A stretch of 64,000 bases of DNA from Escherichia coli (GCF_051903065.1 NZ_CP178438.1); one strand, 5' to 3'; counted from the stretch's first letter, positions 46,365 to 54,328 are shown. The notes: generated by a model not told the origin, from the sequence alone. Numbers and translations: made by a program.

Positions 46365-48058
46365 GAACACAGCAAATAATGCTAATAATGCACTGAACAT
46401 TCTTCCTGAAGCAGCAAACGGCTTTGTTGAATAAATCGAACTTTTGCTGAGTTGAAGGATCAGATCACGTATCTTCCCGACAACGCAGACCGTTCCGTGG
46501 CAAAGCAAAAGTTCAAAATCACCAACTGGCCCACCTACAATAAAGCCCTCATCAACCGTGGCTCCATAACTTTCTGGCTGGATGATGAAGCTATTCAGGC
46601 CTGGTATGAGTCAGCAACACCTTCTTCACGAGGCAGACCTCAGCGCTATTCTGACCTTGCCATCACGACTGTGCTGGTCATTAAACGCGTATTCAGGCTG
46701 ACCCTGCGCGCTGCGCAGGGCTTTATTGATTCCATTTTTTCTCTGATGAACGTTCCGCTACGCTGCCCGGATTACAGCTGTGTCAGCAGGCGGGCAAAGT
46801 CGGTTAATGTCAGTTTCAAAACGCCCACCCGGGGTGAAATCGCACACCTGGTAATTGATTCCACCGGGCTGAAGGTCTTCGGTGAAGGCGAGTGGAAAGT
46901 CAAAAAGCATGGCCAGGAACGCCGCCGTATCTGGCGTAAGCTGCATCTCGCCGTTGACAGTAAAACACATGAAATCATCTGCGCTGACCTGTCGCTGAAC
47001 AACGTTACGGACTCAGAGGCCTTCCCCGGGTTAATCCGGCAAACCCACCGGAAAATCAGGTCAGCCGCCGCCGATGGCGCTTACGATACCCGGCTATGTC
47101 ACGATGAACTGCGGCGTAAGAAAATCAGCGCGCTTATCCCTCCCCGAAAAGGTGCGGGTTACTGGCCCGGTGAATATGCAGACCGTAACCGTGCAGTGGC
47201 TAATCAGCGAATGACCGGGAGTAATGCGCGGTGGAAATGGACAACAGATTACAACCGTCGCTCGATAGCGGAAACGGCGATGTACCGGGTAAAACAGCTG
47301 TTCGGGGGTTCACTGACACTGCGTGACTACGATGGTCAGGTTGCAGAGGCTATGGCCCTGGTACGAGCGCTGAACAAAATGACGAAAGCAGGTATGCCTG
47401 AAAGCGTGCGTATTGCCTGAAAACACAACCCGCTACGGGGGAGACTTACCCGAAATCTGATTTATTCAACAAAGCCGCAGCAAACACAGCTGTAGACAAC
47501 GATGAAAAATATCTGTCCTTTGCATTAGTTCTCGCTATCACGATTATGGACAACTTAGTAAAGCTCATCGGCACAGATGGCTTCGTACTTTATACCTACA
47601 CCCTGCAGGACACGGCTACTGCTCGTGCTGTTTTTAATGAATTAGCCAGGCGTCTCAAAAATTTCAATCGTCAGGAGGAGGTCTACACCACCGATTCCCT
47701 CACCTTTCGAATGAAATACATTTACGGTGTTACCCTGTTCGAACATGATAGTAAATCTATCCTTAACCTCTTTGATAAGAAGGGTTATCCGGTATTGAGT
47801 GAATCAGGAGAACCCGGTTCTCTTGATGATATGTATCTTGACATTCAAGCCCGATTACATGGCGGCTACGCCTCAAAAAAGTTTCTTCATTTACATGAAC
47901 ATTGTCTGTTATCTGCACACGTTACCCCGTCTGTGGAAAAGACGCAACGCGGTATCCTGATTAAAGTAGGCAGGAAACTCGTTTCCTTTATCCATGTAGA
48001 TGATGAATCACACAAAACCGATATTTTCAAATCTGTAGTAAATGTTATTAAATCTTGA
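46354..48058 (+). pseudogene. small ORF interrupted by IS903 after codon 22; the 3' part persists as a 170-aa ORF (47546-48058)
   Basis: ATG at 46354 (MVTKNTANNANNALNILPEAAN) runs into the IS; removing the IS and one TSD copy restores an in-frame ORF of about 212 codons ending 48058. Confidence 0.65.
46420..47476 (+). mobile_element. IS903-like element (IS5 family, 1057 bp; transposase ORF 46452-47420) with 9-bp target-site duplication
   Basis: Terminal inverted repeats ggctttgttgaataaatcg / cgatttattcaacaaagcc; 322-aa DDE transposase ORF; TSD gcagcaaac at 46411-46419 and 47477-47485. Confidence 0.9.
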
Positions 48059-48066
48059 TTCTTTAT

Positions 48067-48094
48067 GCCGGGACACAGCTCCCGGCATTTTTTC
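48067..48094 (+). terminator. hairpin plus T-run between the interrupted ORF and the polymerase gene (terminator or attenuator)
   Basis: Stem gccggga/tcccggc followed by attttttc, 11 bp before the RBS and ATG at 48105. Confidence 0.45.
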
Positions 48095-48104
48095 GGAGTT
48101 AACT

Positions 48105-50705
48105 ATGAGCAATAATTTGCAGGACATCCTCGCTGCCGCCTCGGGGTATCAGTCCGTGACTTCAGAGCCAGCGTTCAATCGTAAAAGACCTAAAACGCTT
48201 GATGATTATCCTGTGATACCACCTGCATCAAAAAAAGTATCTGTTATTTCAAGTGACCTGACACTCCATATCGGTTTTGATACCGAATATGTTTTCAACC
48301 CTGAAACACGACAGAATGATATTCTGTCATATCAGAGTTATGTTGTCTTACCCGATAATACAGGTATATCGAACATTATCTATCCACCTGACTCACAGAA
48401 AAAATCCCGGCTGTCTTTTAAGGAATTTCTCTGTCAAACGATTACACCGCTTCTTGAAACGGGTGTGATTACAAAATGGCCCGGTATTATTAATATATAT
48501 GCGCATTTCATTCGTGCGGATATCGCCTCCTTTGCCAATTTCTGGTCAGACTACAAAATTCTTCTGAAAGGAATACGCGGTACTGTCAGCAGCTTCAAAA
48601 ATCGTTACGGTATCGATTTTGATGAACAGCAGGAACGTCGCGTAAAGACTGAACAGATAATGTTTGACAAACGAACTTCCCCTCCGCGTTGCAGTAACGT
48701 AGCTTTCATCGATACACTGCTTATCACTCCCGGGGGTATGGGTCTGGCTGAATGTGGTGAATTACTGGGTCTTCCCAAACTCACCATTCCTGCACCTTAT
48801 TCCATAACCAATATGCGTGAATATCTTCTGGGCGACAGAGCAGGGTTTGAAGCCTATGCTCTGCGGGATGCCGAGATTGCGGTTCGTTATGCTTTACAGG
48901 TTCGCAATTTTTGCGCCCGGGAGCTGATGATTGATCGTGTCCCCGCCACCATCGGGGCGATGGCAGTTTCACGGTTCACCAAAACACTTAAAGAAAACAA
49001 TATGTCTCCTGAAGTCTGCCTTGGGACACACATTAAAACCCGTGAACTCTGGCTCACGGAGAAACAGGCATTCCGGACGATTAAAAACCCCGCCAGTGTT
49101 CCTTCAAGAGAGTTGTTTGAAACGTTCCCGATCAACTGTTACCACGGCGGACGCAATGAGTGTTTTATGATGGGGGTTACACCGTCTGATCACTGGTATG
49201 ACTACGATCTGGCTGGAGCGTATACCACCGGGCTATTAGATATCCTCACACCCGATTACGGGAACATCCGCCTCAGTAAAAATCCGGACGATTACTGTGG
49301 GCATGTAATGGGATTTGCGCTTGTCACATTTCGGTTCCCGGAATCAGTTCCCTATCCCAGCCTGCCGGTTCGGACCGATCAATATGGGTTATTCTTTCCA
49401 TTAAGTGGCGAATCATGGGCAACGGCACCTGAAATCGAACTTGCTCTGTCGCTCGGGGCAGAGATGACGATCCATAATGGGATCATCGTCCCCTGGATCT
49501 GTGACACCTCCCCACATAACAGCGAATCAACATCGGTGTTTCTTCCCTTTGTTCAACAGGTCCGTGAGAACCGTAATCGCCATATTAAAGGTTCTCTGGA
49601 GGAGAAATTCTGGAAAGAAATTGGCAACTCGCTTTATGGCAAACTTGCTCAGGGCCTTCGCGCCAAAACCGCCTTTGATACTGCCCGTGGATTAAACAGA
49701 TCCCTCCCACCATCATCGGTTACTCAGCCATTCTTTGCTGCGCATGTGACGGGATTTATCCGCGCCGTTGTCGGGGAACTCATGAATGCTTTGCCTTCTG
49801 ATTCATCGGTTGTCAGCGTCACAACCGATGGTTTTTTGACAAATTGCCCACTTGACAAGATAAACATGAGCGGTCCACTGTCTTCCCGCTTCCAGTCGCT
49901 GTGCGATATTGTTGATCCGGGTTCATCAATGTTGACATGTAAGCATGAGGTCAGCCAGCTTATCGCCATGAAAACCCGGGGGCAGTTAACCTATAGAGCT
50001 ATTCAGGGAAAACCTGTTGTTCATGCCAGGGCTGGCGTCAAACCTCCTGCCGATATTCCACGCAGTGACTATAACGACTATATGGTAGATCTTTACCTTA
50101 ATCGTTTACCCGGTCAGACGTTATCCCGAAGTACGTTGATATCAACGCGTGAGATGTGGCTCTCGGAAAGCGATCTGGTATCCCGGGAACAGGATATCCG
50201 TCTTAATCTGGAATTCGATTTCAAACGCCAGCCCGTACAGCCCGCCATGAATGAAGGGCATTTACTGATGTTTTCCCGCCCGTGGGATAATATGGAAGAG
50301 GCTCTGCAGCAACGCTCTCTTTTCGACGACTGGCGGCAAACGCATACACTGAAGACCCTGGCTGACTGGGATGACTGGTGTGATTTTCTCTATTGCCGGA
50401 CGGTGTTTTCTGATATGAAACTAAAAGTCGGAAGCAAACGTAGTGATGATATTTTAGTCAGACTATTTCTCCGGGCGCTGACTCAGTGCCAATGGGGGCT
50501 GATGCTGAAAGATAAAAAAAGTTATTCCTGTAAAGAGGTTGCTGAATGGCTGACGTCAGAAGGCTATTCAGTAACGGTGACTGATGTAAAAAATGCGGTA
50601 AGAGCAAAAATACCCCAAATGAAATTTAGTTCTGTAACACCGCGAATGAAGTCACTGATGGATATCATAGCCCGTAAATATCCGACATTCTGTCTTCCAG
50701 TCTGA
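48105..50705 (+). CDS. family-B DNA polymerase with piPolB-like motifs (pipolin primer-independent PolB)
   Basis: Exo I in LHIGFDTEYVF; YALRD (Exo III-like); KTRG in AMKTRGQLTY; motif B KEIGNSLYGKLAQ; motif C SVTTDGFL; RBS ggag before ATG 48105. Confidence 0.8.
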   Translation: MSNNLQDILAAASGYQSVTSEPAFNRKRPKTLDDYPVIPPASKKVSVISSDLTLHIGFDTEYVFNPETRQNDILSYQSYVVLPDNTGISNIIYPPDSQKKSRLSFKEFLCQTITPLLETGVITKWPGIINIYAHFIRADIASFANFWSDYKILLKGIRGTVSSFKNRYGIDFDEQQERRVKTEQIMFDKRTSPPRCSNVAFIDTLLITPGGMGLAECGELLGLPKLTIPAPYSITNMREYLLGDRAGFEAYALRDAEIAVRYALQVRNFCARELMIDRVPATIGAMAVSRFTKTLKENNMSPEVCLGTHIKTRELWLTEKQAFRTIKNPASVPSRELFETFPINCYHGGRNECFMMGVTPSDHWYDYDLAGAYTTGLLDILTPDYGNIRLSKNPDDYCGHVMGFALVTFRFPESVPYPSLPVRTDQYGLFFPLSGESWATAPEIELALSLGAEMTIHNGIIVPWICDTSPHNSESTSVFLPFVQQVRENRNRHIKGSLEEKFWKEIGNSLYGKLAQGLRAKTAFDTARGLNRSLPPSSVTQPFFAAHVTGFIRAVVGELMNALPSDSSVVSVTTDGFLTNCPLDKINMSGPLSSRFQSLCDIVDPGSSMLTCKHEVSQLIAMKTRGQLTYRAIQGKPVVHARAGVKPPADIPRSDYNDYMVDLYLNRLPGQTLSRSTLISTREMWLSESDLVSREQDIRLNLEFDFKRQPVQPAMNEGHLLMFSRPWDNMEEALQQRSLFDDWRQTHTLKTLADWDDWCDFLYCRTVFSDMKLKVGSKRSDDILVRLFLRALTQCQWGLMLKDKKSYSCKEVAEWLTSEGYSVTVTDVKNAVRAKIPQMKFSSVTPRMKSLMDIIARKYPTFCLPV

Positions 50706-50753: not shown

Positions 50754-51080
50754 TCACAGGCAATCGGCATCAAAACAGTGAAATAACTGCCGCGCGTCAG
50801 GATGGCCATTTACATGATAGATCCGCATGGCATGACAGGTGATACTCTGGAGATTAGCCGCCAGCCTTTTCCCCATATTCACCAGTATGCCGTGTGGTAT
50901 TTTACTGCTTGTACTGTTTACTGTCAGAGTAAAACAATTTGTTTCAACGCTGACCTCAATAAAATCATTTCCAAATAATGTACCGACAACCTGCCTGATT
51001 GTTTCTTCATAATCTGTCAGATCAATGACATCACGCCATCTCGCATTTACGAGTTGATACTTTCTGATATGTAAATACAT
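50754..51080 (-). CDS. hypothetical protein (108 aa)
   Basis: ORF MYLHIRKYQLVNARWRDVIDLTDYEETIRQ; divergent from the WYL regulator gene; no recognisable motif. Confidence 0.45.
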   Translation of the reverse strand: MYLHIRKYQLVNARWRDVIDLTDYEETIRQVVGTLFGNDFIEVSVETNCFTLTVNSTSSKIPHGILVNMGKRLAANLQSITCHAMRIYHVNGHPDARQLFHCFDADCL

Positions 51081-51299
51081 AGAACCACCTTTATGTTATT
51101 TCAACTAATATGATGTTCTCCGATATTATGAAAATATTAATCATCATTGTAATTGCTGATAACCTCTCTAACCTTCGGATCTTACGTTCCCCCCTGCCTC
51201 TCCGACTTGATGGCAAAAGTGCATGGTCAAATATGCAGCAAAAACATGTCATGTACAGGTCAGGATAATAATTATCACCCTGAACTTAAAAATACACAT

Positions 51300-51410
51300 G
51301 GACAGGATGAGTCCACATGTTATTCGATGATTCCAGCAATGTTTTAATATATTGATAATTAATGAGTTAATTTTTTTCTCCGTCACAGTAAAAGTGGACT
51401 CATCCTGTCC
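51300..51410. promoter_or_regulatory. perfect 17-bp inverted repeat pair, candidate operator in the divergent promoter region upstream of the WYL regulator
   Basis: ggacaggatgagtccac at 51300-51316 and its reverse complement gtggactcatcctgtcc at 51394-51410, spaced by 77 bp of AT-rich DNA, 50 bp before the ATG at 51460. Confidence 0.5.
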
Positions 51411-51459
51411 GTTACTTTGCTGAAAATATCCTCTTCGCTGGCATTAACCGGATAAACGA

Positions 51460-52362
51460 ATGGGTAAGCACGATAAACTTGGATATCGACTCGGATTGAT
51501 ATTAACTCGCCTGAACAATGGTGAGTCACTAGCCGTCCGGGAGTTATCTGAGGAATTTAACGTTTGCGAAAAAACTATCCGTCGCGATCTTACTCAGCGC
51601 CTGTCCTATCTTAATCTGATTCGACAAAATGGTCGCTATCGCCTGTCTGACGGTGTTCTCGGTCAACGCAGCAATGCTGATTTACGTCATTTCACGCGCA
51701 TCCTGGGTATTGAAGGGCTGTTCCCTCGCTGGGATGACAGACTACTGAGTATTTTGTTAGGTAACACGAAAAATAACCCGTTTCTGATAAAACAACGTCC
51801 ATACGAAAACTGCGGATCATTCATGTCAATTCTGAATGTATTATCCGATGCCATCCTGTCACAGAAGAAAGTAAATTTTAATTACAAAGATAAAGAGTTT
51901 CGGGCTGTTGAGCCATACAGACTGGTTAATGACAACGGATTGTGGTATCTCGCTGCCGCCCATGACAGTACATTAAAAAGCTTTGTTATCTCATCTGTCA
52001 AAGACGTTTGCATGAGTAATATCTCTTTCAGGATAATCCCCGAAATTAATGAAAAAATAGAAAAGACAGATGGTATCTGGTATAGCGAAGACCTTATCGA
52101 AGTTCTCATTTCAGTTTCCGCACATGTTGCTCCGTGGTTTACCCACCGTCATCTATTGCCAGGACAGGAAATAATTCATACTTCCCGGTCTGGCGATTTA
52201 CTGGTGATATCACGTGTAACACACACAGATCAGATAATGCCTTTAATGAAATACTGGATACCGGATGTCGAAGTAATACAACCGGCCTCAATCCGTCAAC
52301 AACTTGCTGAAGATATACAATCCGCACTGAAACGTTACACCCAGCCAAGTAACGCCCCGTAA
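51460..52362 (+). CDS. HTH plus WYL-domain transcriptional regulator (BrxR/CapW-like)
   Basis: 300-aa ORF; N-terminal [37 protein letters not shown]; WYL motif in [13 protein letters not shown]. Confidence 0.75.
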
Positions 52363-52423
52363 TGACACGGATAATATAATTTTCATTAAGTGCTATTTTT
52401 ATAAGCTAAAAAATGGAGTTACC

Positions 52424-53242
52424 ATGAAAAAATGCCCGGTTCTTCTTGTTGTATCAGGGTTTCTGACCGAAAATGATATATCATGGTTTAACCGAATTAA
52501 AGCAGGGTGTGGCCTTGATGTCAGATACTATAAATGGGAATCGGCAAATCTACTATCCATATTAAGTTCTGACATAGCGAACAAGTGGGGGTTATATACT
52601 CTCTTCCCCCTGAGAACATCTCCTTTATTGTCATCAATCTCCATTCCATTTAAAGCGCGTCAGGCCTGGTATAATGCAACGAAAGCAGCAGTTAATAACA
52701 GAGAAAAATTAGCACACGTAATAAACGAGATATACGTTAAAGAAAAGCGTAATGTGATCATAATGGGTCATTCTTTAGGGACTCGATTAATAAACAATAC
52801 ATTACCCTATATAAAAAATGATAATATTCTCTTAACAATCTCTATGGCCGGAGCCACCCCAATAACAAGTTATACAGAGAACATAATGAAAATGGCTTAC
52901 GGTTCAAAAATGGGGCATTTAAATATCTACAGTGAACATGATAAAGTACTTAACACGATATACCCTCTCGTAGAGTCAGTAACGCCAATTGGGGTTCGGG
53001 AGGTGAGATTCAGACCTGCTCGGGTGATCAACTGGAAGTGGGATATTGGTCACACTGAATATATTACTTCAAACAGGATTGATTCATTAACACACTGGTT
53101 AAATGTTACCTGTGCCGATTTAGCTGATCCAGCCGTAGAAATCACTGACGACGACATGAAATCATTTCATGATATTATTAATCTTGCGAATTTAACATGT
53201 CATAAAAACACTGTCGCACCTAAATTAATATCATTTGAGTAG
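52424..53242 (+). CDS. alpha/beta-hydrolase-fold serine hydrolase (esterase/lipase-like), function unknown
   Basis: 272-aa ORF; nucleophile elbow GHSLG in VIIMGHSLGTRL; candidate triad Asp in SEHDKV and His in DIGHTEY; 61 bp downstream of the WYL gene. Confidence 0.65.
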   Translation: MKKCPVLLVVSGFLTENDISWFNRIKAGCGLDVRYYKWESANLLSILSSDIANKWGLYTLFPLRTSPLLSSISIPFKARQAWYNATKAAVNNREKLAHVINEIYVKEKRNVIIMGHSLGTRLINNTLPYIKNDNILLTISMAGATPITSYTENIMKMAYGSKMGHLNIYSEHDKVLNTIYPLVESVTPIGVREVRFRPARVINWKWDIGHTEYITSNRIDSLTHWLNVTCADLADPAVEITDDDMKSFHDIINLANLTCHKNTVAPKLISFE

Positions 53243-53317
53243 TTAAAAAAAGGTTGCATTATAACGGGAGTGTATATTTACTCCCGTTAAGTTTCATATT
53301 TTATAGAATTGATATGG

Positions 53318-54085
53318 GGTGATGCTGCCAACTTACTGATTTAGTGTATGATGGTGTTTTTGAGGTGCTCCAGTGGCTTCTGTTTCTATCAGCTGTCCCT
53401 CCTGTTCAGCTACTGAAGGCGTGGTGCGTAACGGTAAAAGTACTGCCGGACATCAGCGCTATCTCTGCTCTCACTGCCGTAAAACATGGCAACTGCAGTT
53501 CACTTACACCGCTTCTCAACCCGGTACGCACCAGAAAATCATTGATATGGCCATGAATGGCGTTGGATGCCGGGCAACCGCCCGCATTATGAGCGTTGGC
53601 CTCAACACGATTTTCCGCCATTTAAAAAACTCAGGCCGCAGTCGGTAACCTCGCGCATACAGCCGGGCAGTGACGTCATCGTCTGCGCGGAAATGGACGA
53701 ACAGTGGGGCTATGTCGGGGCTAAATCGCGCCAGCGCTGGCTGTTTTACGCGTATGACAGGCTCCGGAAGACGGTTGTTGCGCACGTATTCGGTGAACGC
53801 ACTATGGCGACGCTGGGGCGTCTTATGAGCCTGCTGTCACCCTTTGACGTGGTGATATGGATGACGGATGGCTGGCCGCTGTATGAATCCCGCCTGAAGG
53901 GAAAGCTGCACGTAATCAGCAAGCGATATACGCAGCGAATTGAGCGGCATAACCTGAATCTGAGGCAGCACCTGGCACGGCTGGGACGGAAGTCGCTGTC
54001 GTTCTCAAAATCGGTGGAGCTGCATGACAAAGTCATCGGGCATTATCTGAACATAAAACACTATCAATAAGTTGGAGTCATTACC
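53318..54085 (+). mobile_element. insAB: IS1 copy (768 bp; insA 53373-53648, insB frame 53567-54070) with 9-bp target-site duplication
   Basis: IS1 terminal repeats; TSD ttgatatgg at 53309-53317 and 54086-54094; InsA differs from copy 1 at a few residues. Confidence 0.95.
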
Positions 54086-54100
54086 TTGATATGGATTCGA

Positions 54101-54328
54101 TTAAAAATTTCGTCTAACTCGTTCCCTTATCAAACTTGCCAGCCTTACCCTTCCAGGTGAAATAGTTTCCGTTACAGTTTCAACTCTCAACAAATCACGC
54201 TGTCCGGTTCGGCGACTGACCGCGAAACGCTGACATATATCATTAACCGATACCGTATTACCGGTATACAGTTGAAGTAATATCCAGCACAGCCTTTCTG
54301 CGATCCTTTCACCGCGAGTTTTATACAT
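54101..54328 (-). CDS. small HTH protein (75 aa) resembling the N-terminal HTH of WYL/DeoR-type regulators
   Basis: ERLCWILLQLYTGNTVSVNDICQRFAVSRRTGQRDL parallels the HTH of the 51460 regulator; natural stop 7 bp from the IS1 TSD. Confidence 0.4.
   Translation of the reverse strand: MYKTRGERIAERLCWILLQLYTGNTVSVNDICQRFAVSRRTGQRDLLRVETVTETISPGRVRLASLIRERVRRNF

Follow-up and report, generated by a model that had tools for sequence, protein, structure and literature searches.

A predicted DriD-like WYL regulator, its two conserved boxes and a lipase-like cargo gene in an Escherichia coli pipolin

What does a WYL-domain regulator control when the gene behind it encodes a lone serine hydrolase and a perfect inverted repeat lies in front of it? 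This question is raised by positions 51,081 to 53,242 of a 64,000-nt stretch of Escherichia coli DNA (GCF_051903065.1 NZ_CP178438.1), which we refer to, at its full length, as the window. A preliminary description had read the locus as a regulator of the BrxR/CapW type, followed 61 bp later by a 272-aa alpha/beta-hydrolase and forming with it a candidate defence or stress module. Both open reading frames (ORFs) and the 61-bp gap between them are present. Our analysis assigns the pair to the conserved backbone of a pipolin, an integrative element that encodes piPolB and lies, in this E. coli genome, at tRNA-Leu; it also separates the repeat into two conserved boxes upstream of the regulator gene, and suggests that these boxes serve a regulator akin to DriD. 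Of the earlier view, in which a BrxR-like repressor controls a new defence system, only part holds.

Two boxes, a promoter layout and a DriD-like regulator

The features on which the argument turns are, in order along the window:

51298..51316, no strand: distal WYL box (arm 1), core GGAC-AGGATGA-GTCC at 51300-51314, conserved as ATGGACAGGTTGAGTCCA in 11 loci
51345..51357, minus strand: IHF-consensus-like motif TATCAATATATTA, matching WATCAANNNNTTR, near the midpoint between the boxes
51394..51410, no strand: proximal WYL box (arm 2), core GGAC-TCATCCT-GTCC at 51396-51410, covering the slot of the -35 hexamer
51422..51427, plus strand: -10-like hexamer GAAAAT of a predicted activator-dependent promoter, exactly 11 nt past the proximal box
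51460..52362, plus strand: 300-aa transcription regulator composed of wHTH (winged helix-turn-helix), a helical linker, WYL and WCX (by Pfam, profile and fold), a core pipolin gene
52424..53242, plus strand: 272-aa DUF726-family alpha/beta-hydrolase, lipase-like, with Ser117/Asp173/His210, cytoplasmic by model

The perfect 17-bp inverted repeat noticed earlier is confirmed: the arm GGACAGGATGAGTCCAC at 51300-51316 and its exact complement at 51394-51410 are separated by 77 nt, and no other site in the 64 kb matches the 17-mer with three or fewer mismatches (0.12 expected). We aligned the upstream regions of 11 orthologous WYL loci from nine genera, collected from protein databases and one genome scan, with regulators 56-98% identical. 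The alignment contains two conserved blocks, distal ATGGACAGGTTGAGTCCA and proximal TGGACTCATCCTGTCC, which lie 68-81 nt apart and are separated by an AT-rich spacer that diverges freely. Because this architecture is kept in 11 loci from nine genera, the repeat is more than a chance occurrence. Taken singly, each block is a small palindrome (TGGAC-N7-GTCCA) whose centre is asymmetric, and it is because two palindromic boxes sit in opposite orientation that one long inverted repeat is perceived. Exact GGAC-N7-GTCC occurs in the window at the two upstream sites and nowhere else, and the box centres are 94 bp apart (about nine helical turns), compared to 85-98 bp in the other loci.

The boxes are kept upstream of WYL orthologues regardless of the gene downstream, and since they stay while the cargo behind WYL varies, they belong to the regulator and not to the hydrolase. 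Their geometry is that of known WYL sites: the DriD box is ATACGAC-N7-GTCGTAT, with the core GAC-N7-GTC (PMC10853764), and the Acinetobacter DdaA box, CGACAATATGTGTCG, likewise has GAC-N7-GTC geometry (PMC13010146). Judging from these sequences, the repeat is very probably the binding site of the regulator. To this extent the palindromic operator proposed earlier stands, although it is not one operator but two 17-bp boxes with DriD geometry.

The position of the proximal box points to how it might be used. In all 11 Enterobacterales loci, a (G/C)A(A/T)AAT hexamer follows this box after exactly 11 nt, with no insertion or deletion between the two; orthologues have GATAAT or CATAAT, and alignment positions A154, A156, A157 and T158 are invariant. 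The same succession of box, 11 nt and xAxxxT recurs at more distant loci, namely L006 (47% regulator identity), L007 (35%) and, in Campylobacterota, L052 (25%), where the second of two tandem boxes is followed after 11 nt by TAAAAT. Overall, the 11-nt spacing to xAxxxT is found in 14/14 loci with a recognisable box, including the one whose regulator is only 25% identical. A 17-bp spacer counted from the hexamer puts the -35 slot on box positions 4-9; no -35-like sequence is present at that slot, and a sigma-70 consensus scan called no plus-strand promoter in the region upstream of WYL. Promoters activated by DriD, as described in a 2026 cryo-electron microscopy study (PMC13004042), have a -10 element, no -35, and the box over the -35 position at a fixed distance; in the Methods of that study, an engineered optimal -35 replaces box positions 4-9 of the didA promoter, and our own count on the published didA sequence gives 11 nt between the box and CAATCT. 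It is mainly because the proximal box sits where a DriD-family activator sits that activation is favoured over repression, and by this analogy the location of the box at the -35 slot suggests that the regulator activates its promoter.

The regulator itself was compared with WYL proteins of solved structure through sequence, profile and fold. Pfam identifies HTH_DeoR (5.6e-8), WYL (2.5e-10) and WCX (1.7e-9). A single-sequence search of the PDB returned nothing useful, and among sequence methods DriD and PafBC were reached by profiles only: searched against all PDB sequences, the profile of the regulator family retrieved PafBC (8e-14) and, over its full length, DriD (2e-10), and did not retrieve BrxR or CapW. 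The AlphaFold (AF2) model, with a predicted local distance difference test (pLDDT) score of 81 and low confidence in linker residues 83-103, ranks DriD first among folds (7.7e-12), followed by PafBC (1.3e-9), BrxR (4.1e-7) and CapW (6.1e-7), and its top ten PDB matches are all DriD. Residues 159-166 read NGLWYLAA, which places GLWYL where the BrxR/CapW family has RWHVR, the motif that marks that family (PMC11662680); W162 and Y163 are invariant in 34 regulator relatives. PADLOC-DB 2.0 returned generic WYL models only. By sequence and predicted fold, the regulator is thus closer to DriD, DdaA and PafBC, activators that are themselves activated by single-stranded DNA (ssDNA), than to the BrxR/CapW repressors. 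The earlier assignment to the BrxR/CapW type does not hold, with GLWYL in place of RWHVR and DriD and PafBC well above BrxR and CapW by both profile and fold; what survives of that comparison is the domain order wHTH-WYL-WCX, and what does not is the motif, the nearest solved relatives and the operator geometry.

DriD of Caulobacter crescentus and DdaA of Acinetobacter are homodimeric WYL activators of SOS-independent DNA damage responses. Beyond the best fold match and the full-length profile match (both DriD), the pipolin regulator has in common with them the order wHTH, helical linker, WYL and WCX, the box geometry xGAC-N7-GTCx and a site at the regulator's own promoter; with DriD it also shares a box over the -35 slot of a -35-less promoter, equally far from the -10. 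In DriD, Arg37 and Arg41 read conserved guanines of the box (PMC10853764). In the profile alignment, K38 and the invariant R42 of the pipolin regulator fall on these base-reading positions, with low posterior support in the HTH, and the L006 orthologue, whose recognition helix is STRTVQRD, apparently has Arg at the first of them. Among the ssDNA contacts of DriD, Y142, Y163, K173 and F175 are kept or conservatively replaced. However, several ssDNA-contact arginines are not, and because these contacts are only partly kept, we can only infer that ssDNA is the ligand. Other differences are an identity of only ~14-17%, a GGAC half-site here and CGAC there, two inverted boxes 94 bp apart, the absence of a box at other genes within the 64-kb window, and carriage by a mobile element instead of a role as chromosomal master regulator; activation, moreover, is here a prediction. 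DriD also drives the lethal effector BapE, so that control of a toxic enzyme by a WYL activator would not be without precedent.

A repressor could occupy the same sites, and activation and repression differ here only in the sign of regulation. Under repression, a BrxR/CapW-like protein would sit on both boxes, perhaps looping the AT-rich promoter, and ssDNA bound to the WYL domain would release the hydrolase as a defence effector. BrxR and CapW are WYL repressors at the 5' edge of defence systems; the pipolin regulator has their wHTH-WYL-WCX order, lies on a mobile island where it heads variable cargo, and is predicted to regulate itself through symmetric DNA sites near its own start codon, and a 35%-identical relative heads a three-gene cluster of dynamin-like GTPases. 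CapW, in addition, releases DNA on binding ssDNA (PMC11662680). At the promoter, the proximal box overlaps the core elements, where a bound protein could block RNA polymerase, and repression loops are typified by the arrangement seen here, a pair of sites separated by about nine helical turns, with an IHF-like motif in a bendable AT-rich spacer. This explanation is nonetheless weakened by the GLWYL sequence in place of RWHVR, by BrxR and CapW being missed by the profile and falling about five orders of magnitude below DriD by fold, and by the BrxR operator, which consists of 10-11-bp repeats with a 5-bp spacer, compared to 5-bp half-sites with a 7-bp spacer here. The promoter without a -35, with a box at the DriD activation position, likewise points away from repression, which we consider unlikely but a serious contender.

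The IHF-like motif between the boxes has 8 matches in the window against 3.6 expected and is thus weak by itself; at its alignment position YAA-N4-TTGATW is partly conserved, and the spacer between the boxes is 24.7% GC. From these sequence features, a cooperative or looped complex across the two boxes is plausible. Two other uses of the distal box were ruled out, as the site of a second rightward promoter and as an activator site for the divergent promoter of the neighbouring 108-aa gene, with no conserved -10-like hexamer at 11 nt in either case; the 108-aa gene is also missing from many pipolins that keep the box. Read on the minus strand, the distal box (51294-51320) forms a short hairpin followed by a T-run and was scored as terminator-like; it could stop transcripts that run leftwards from the direction of WYL, or simply be a by-product of the palindrome.

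Outside the aligned loci, the exact box is absent from 22/23 Campylobacterota orthologues, and the box sequence is therefore conserved within closer relatives only; in those without it, the sites must differ. The Campylobacterota locus L052, from a metagenome-assembled genome (MAG), has two TGGAC-N7-GTC boxes in tandem, 24 nt from start to start and ~110-70 nt upstream of WYL. At L007, the box reads GTGACA-N5-TGTCAC and lies 11 nt before the -10-like hexamer.

The pipolin setting and the cargo slot

While the preliminary description recognised a WYL regulator with a serine hydrolase, it missed their setting in a pipolin backbone. The island that carries the pair adjoins tRNA-Leu/Cys/Gly genes, beside pgsA and uvrC. 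It starts with a tyrosine recombinase and a small excisionase-type HTH protein, followed by a family-B DNA polymerase (48042-50705), and at its far end a DUF2787 protein and three small orphan genes precede a second integrase that abuts the tRNA genes. The resulting gene order is IntP2, Xis, piPolB, p108, WYL, hydrolase, small HTH, DUF2787, p177, p123, p80, IntSXT, i.e., the combination of piPolB, IntSXT, DUF2787, WYL and, usually, IntP2/excisionase at a tRNA gene by which gammaproteobacterial pipolins are recognised. Pipolins are said to have been described by Redrejo-Rodriguez in 2017 as piPolB-encoding integrative elements. The pair is present in 304/5426 complete E. coli genomes (~5.6%), and in every case it is chromosomal.

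In the sections covered of a later pipolin study (Mateo-Caceres 2024; PMC11551731), the pipolin core consists of piPolB, IntSXT, DUF2787 and a protein with a WYL domain and is contrasted with exchangeable defence cargo; pipolins are presented as platforms for defence genes, for which no transfer machinery is known. The searched portions of its text do not mention the boxes, a DriD-type nature of the regulator, the hydrolase, a lipase or a DUF726 gene, and the section covered does not mention a variable slot directly behind the WYL gene.

Four further features frame this slot and its transcription:

50754..51080, minus strand: 108-aa ORF with no assigned function (ORF list; RefSeq hypothetical protein), divergent from the WYL gene
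52415..52418, plus strand: GGAG ribosome-binding site of the hydrolase, 5 nt before its ATG
53262..53289, plus strand: terminator-like hairpin with an 11-bp stem, which would end the WYL-hydrolase transcript
54101..54328, minus strand: 75-aa HTH-only protein similar to the regulator's N-terminal HTH, bounding the cargo slot at its far end

A terminator scan of 52362-52424, between the WYL and hydrolase genes, found none. A tblastn map across pipolins revealed a conserved backbone around a slot behind WYL that varies. The backbone (IntP2, Xis, p170, piPolB and WYL on one side, small HTH, DUF2787, p177, p123, p80 and IntSXT on the other) is kept in E. coli, Citrobacter, Intestinirhabdus, Buttiauxella and an Enterobacter MAG. 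The slot holds the hydrolase in E. coli and Citrobacter (66-96% identical over the mapped loci); a 146-154-aa protein together with a 299-aa P-loop GTPase, which has weak LeoBC/LeoA (Eleos)-like matches, in Intestinirhabdus, Buttiauxella, Enterobacter and Limnobaculum; the small protein only in Cedecea and Mangrovibacter; and, in a metagenomic element, a 326-aa protein whose hydrophobic stretches suggest a membrane protein. At L007 (8001-15737), on a metagenome/NCBI contig and outside any recognisable pipolin, the 35%-identical regulator heads two small genes and three dynamin-like GTPases. By sequence arrangement, the hydrolase is predicted to be one of several alternative cargos expressed from the promoter of the regulator.

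Several observations concern these alternative cargos and the exchange of parts around the slot. The alternative cargo lies at 6887-8207 in L020, L022, L024 and L025, at 6842-8202 in L023 and at 8890-9339 in L003; the start of the 146-154-aa protein overlaps the WYL stop codon, and in Buttiauxella warmboldiae (L022) WYL and the small gene are fused into a 441-aa ORF. The dynamin-like GTPases of L007 match LeoA/LeoBC-like models, and this cluster may represent a WYL-controlled Eleos-like system. In the divergent E. coli pipolin L017 (7032-7936), the regulator is a mosaic, with 90% identity over the N-terminal 145 residues and 66% over the C-terminal half, the same level as the hydrolase of this locus; here the WYL gene is split by a frameshift, and recombination seems to swap the sensor half along with the cargo, leaving the boxes and the DNA-binding half in place. 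A 476-aa protein of E. coli O13,129,135:H11 (P0028) joins the first third of the regulator (99% identity) to DUF262/GmrSD-type domains (PF03235), which suggests that recombination or insertion put a defence-type nuclease gene inside the WYL gene.

The small HTH protein at the far edge of the slot is found in all pipolins examined, at 75-78 aa (e.g., L016 8907-9137, L020 9108-9344 and L003 10279-10509), and its recognition helix reads SRRTGQRD. With the WYL protein as tblastn query, its counterparts in L016, L020, L022 and L024 were hit at 34-36% identity over residues 3-63, and the protein matches a PADLOC WYL model at 1.1e-4. It may be a partner of the regulator, or a ligand-independent competitor for the same or similar boxes.

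On the other side of the regulator, the 108-aa ORF runs leftwards from 51080, which makes the 379-bp region upstream of WYL a divergent intergenic one. By tblastn, this gene was found in the E. coli and Citrobacter loci L016-L019, which carry the hydrolase, and was absent from the Buttiauxella, Intestinirhabdus and Enterobacter pipolins, which carry the small protein and GTPase. This co-occurrence with the hydrolase is sampled in two lineages only, and simple linkage may explain it. Two insertion sequences (IS) interrupt the pipolin copy in the window, at 46452-47420 and 53344-54070: an IS5-family element directly 3' of the excisionase gene shortens the gene upstream of piPolB (170 aa here vs 212 aa in strain NCTC9080), and an IS1 separates the hydrolase terminator from the small HTH gene. 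In other E. coli strains, IS insertions fall inside the matched stretch, with IS1, IS2 and IS3 common.

The hydrolase and its possible role

The catalytic residues proposed earlier, a GHSLG nucleophile with an Asp/His triad, were borne out: Ser117 of GHSLG, Asp173 and His210 do not vary in either of two alignments, of 18 and of 52 homologues. Pfam assigns DUF726 (PF05277; 1.5e-6, partial) and LCAT (3.3e-5), both weakly, and RefSeq names the product a DUF726 domain-containing protein; NCBIfam and PHROG scans gave no informative name, the PHROG families being unnamed and probably derived from prophage predictions. In the AlphaFold model (pLDDT 85), the N-terminus is the buried first core strand, with no signal peptide. 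Neighbours in AFDB are nearly all DUF726 proteins, eukaryotic ones included, while the nearest solved folds are minimal lipases (B. subtilis LipA, A. fulgidus lipase) and pancreatic lipase-related proteins; hornet phospholipase A1 (PLA1; 4QNN) is a weak match (E 0.026), and the structure search found no solved structure among close homologues.

The family is small: at E ≤ 0.001, an exhaustive search of 1.84 billion representative proteins recovered 82 clusters. Full-length relatives outside E. coli and Citrobacter are 25-36% identical and emerged from this exhaustive search, whereas a word-indexed homology search reached E. coli relatives only. A phage collection gave no match, and a plasmid collection gave one weak match, in Vibrio. 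The distant relatives are all accessory genes of mobile DNA. A 34%-identical relative (L064/L065 6001-6780) belongs to a lambdoid prophage, in which it immediately follows the Q antiterminator and lies upstream of a DNA methyltransferase, RexA/RexB and holin-lysozyme genes; the position between Q and the lysis genes is a classic moron and defence site of lambdoid prophages. Of the other relatives, one occurs in a prophage-like element that also encodes a terminase and a serine recombinase, one amid numerous small phage-like ORFs, one beside type I restriction-modification genes and integrase remnants, and one near an integrase. The pipolin gene itself differs in composition from its surroundings (37.5% GC vs 47.3% for the window). 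By association, the hydrolase fits a conflict gene or 'moron', and it is only from these neighbourhoods that we infer a defence role. The earlier view that it stands outside recognised defence systems was upheld, as it has no match in PADLOC and no defence role was found for it in literature text searches.

Lipid-cleaving effectors of abortive infection do exist on mobile islands. CapV of the cyclic-oligonucleotide-based antiphage signalling system (CBASS) is a patatin-like phospholipase effector, switched on post-translationally by a cyclic nucleotide. The likeness to the pipolin hydrolase is one of concept; the fold is patatin in one and classic alpha/beta-hydrolase in the other, only transcriptional control is seen here, and PADLOC does not match the pipolin protein. 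The only tested enzyme with a DUF726 annotation that our search of the DUF726 literature found is cinquedea of Haloferax larsenii, a secreted bactericidal phospholipase A annotated as DUF726/DUF900 (bioRxiv 10.64898/2026.06.10.730825). Compared by these features only, the two proteins share the alpha/beta-hydrolase fold, an xHSLG motif, the Ser/Asp/His triad, the DUF726 annotation and lipase/PLA1-like fold neighbours. Cinquedea, however, is archaeal, secreted and acts on other cells, whereas the pipolin hydrolase, which lacks a signal peptide, would act in its own cell.

The reading that we favour joins these parts as follows. The WYL and hydrolase genes would form a two-gene operon in the pipolin backbone, headed by a DriD/DdaA-like regulator, a predicted homodimer that would sense a nucleic-acid ligand, most likely ssDNA, with DNA damage, phage replication or the pipolin's own replication as possible sources. 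The regulator would recognise the two TGGAC-N7-GTCCA boxes in their opposite orientations, and in its ligand-bound form would, from the proximal box, recruit RNA polymerase to the -35-less promoter in the manner of DriD, switching on its own gene plus the cargo behind it. The distal box, perhaps aided by an IHF-type bend in the intervening spacer, may modulate this response by binding cooperatively or by forming a loop. Once induced, the hydrolase, with its lipase or phospholipase-A-like fold, would cleave membrane phospholipid or another ester, and the cell would be stopped or killed or its envelope remodelled, as by an abortive-infection-type conflict effector. Taken as a whole, from activation of the promoter to a hydrolase acting as a self-harming or envelope-altering effector, this is a tentative reading that falls a little short of an even call.

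Several results weigh against it. At the promoter, the E. coli -10 hexamer GAAAAT is weak, and a box over a promoter could equally repress. The distal box, no less conserved than the proximal box, is the feature that this reading explains least, with no conserved -10-like hexamer 11 nt from it on either side in the 11-locus alignment. For the regulator, the positions of DriD Arg189 and Arg207 are not kept, leaving the ssDNA contacts partial only. For the hydrolase, PADLOC-DB 2.0 returned no match at E ≤ 0.01, and a constitutively active cytoplasmic lipase would need a further control, of which none was found. Among six distant hydrolase relatives, none (0/6) has a WYL neighbour; the pairing is therefore specific to one lineage, and a conserved hydrolase-WYL pairing outside E. 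coli and Citrobacter was ruled out. Finally, an IS1-associated deletion in about one third of E. coli pipolins has taken out WYL together with the 5' part of the hydrolase gene, and the pair is accordingly dispensable for keeping the element.

The module could instead serve the life cycle of the pipolin, with WYL sensing damage or replication intermediates and the hydrolase being either a release factor or passenger cargo without a role in conflict. In its release-factor form, the envelope would be weakened by lysis or vesicle formation, through which a non-conjugative element escapes. Mycobacteriophage LysB is a lipolytic lysis enzyme, and one hydrolase relative lies between Q and a lysis cassette, where lysis-time genes are expressed, although this prophage position, near RexAB, is also classic for morons and defence genes. 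In the sections covered of PMC11551731, WYL is a core pipolin gene linked with piPolB, IntSXT and DUF2787 across Gammaproteobacteria, and pipolins are without known transfer machinery, both as a life-cycle role would have it. Nevertheless, the box is present only at the regulator's own promoter and not at the integrase, excisionase and polymerase genes in the window, most related pipolins have other cargo in the slot instead of the hydrolase, and the N-terminus of the hydrolase is, by model, a buried core strand and not a signal peptide. We regard such a role as quite unlikely.

The inverted repeat might also be selected as a nucleic-acid structure, either an RNA stem of 17-19 bp with a 77-nt loop, acting as an attenuator or processing site, or a DNA cruciform. 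Folded as RNA, the region reaches -42.2 kcal/mol (z = -6.1), and the arms are 86.8% complementary over the 11 loci, with a few two-sided changes in the centre. Yet many mismatches, in several orthologues, are uncompensated, with 5/11 loci unpaired at one central position, and because of this pattern two sites for one protein fit better than a selected hairpin. In addition, the arms are conserved in sequence, each is palindromic and matches a known protein-box geometry, no Rfam match covers the repeat, the L052 boxes are tandem and not inverted, and since the conserved -10 lies downstream of the proximal arm, the repeat would fall outside the WYL mRNA. Selection for structure is therefore very unlikely. 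That the hydrolase is an ordinary housekeeping or metabolic esterase, neighbour to the regulator by chance, is hardly credible: the alpha/beta-hydrolase fold is generic and does not reveal a substrate, but this idea is close to refuted by the distribution of the gene (~5.6% of complete E. coli genomes, in each case within the pipolin), its frequent deletion or interruption by IS, its deviating GC content and its tiny family with relatives in prophages and islands.

Implications for pipolins and DUF726 proteins

Pipolins, WYL as one of their core genes, WYL regulators in general and the DriD/DdaA box are already known. To our knowledge, the DriD-type identity of the pipolin regulator, the two conserved boxes and activator-type promoter geometry of its gene, the variable cargo slot directly behind it, and a small DUF726 clade recurring at prophage and island accessory sites have not been described before. 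Pipolins are widespread, with roughly 9,700 published, and their core WYL gene now has a concrete promoter model, in which two boxes are combined with an activator-type layout and transcription is predicted to start near 51433-51436, while the position behind WYL is defined as a predicted inducible slot with exchangeable cargo. Should the hydrolase be inert cargo, the finding would shrink to a regulatory detail of a known element.

A broader possibility, which we consider unlikely and rather speculative, is that DUF726-type hydrolases are an unrecognised class of single-gene effectors of mobile elements, fired in pipolins by an ssDNA-sensing activator of the DriD type. Such an effector would be a phospholipase-type enzyme, serving suicide or superinfection exclusion, or alternatively a release factor that opens the envelope for an otherwise non-transmissible pipolin. 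We know of no characterised defence-linked WYL regulator that is not a repressor, BrxR and CapW being the cases described; if true, the pipolin protein would be the first WYL regulator of the activator type found to control the defence-like cargo of a mobile element, and the slot behind WYL would be a defined inducible site for exchangeable effectors (hydrolase, small protein plus GTPase, dynamin-like GTPases).

If activation holds, DriD-type logic would extend from chromosomal damage responses to the cargo of mobile elements. For DUF726, a large family that includes eukaryotic members and has almost no biochemistry, a bacterial representative would offer a practical entry point if its induction signal were clear and its effect could be read out as toxicity or in phage assays.

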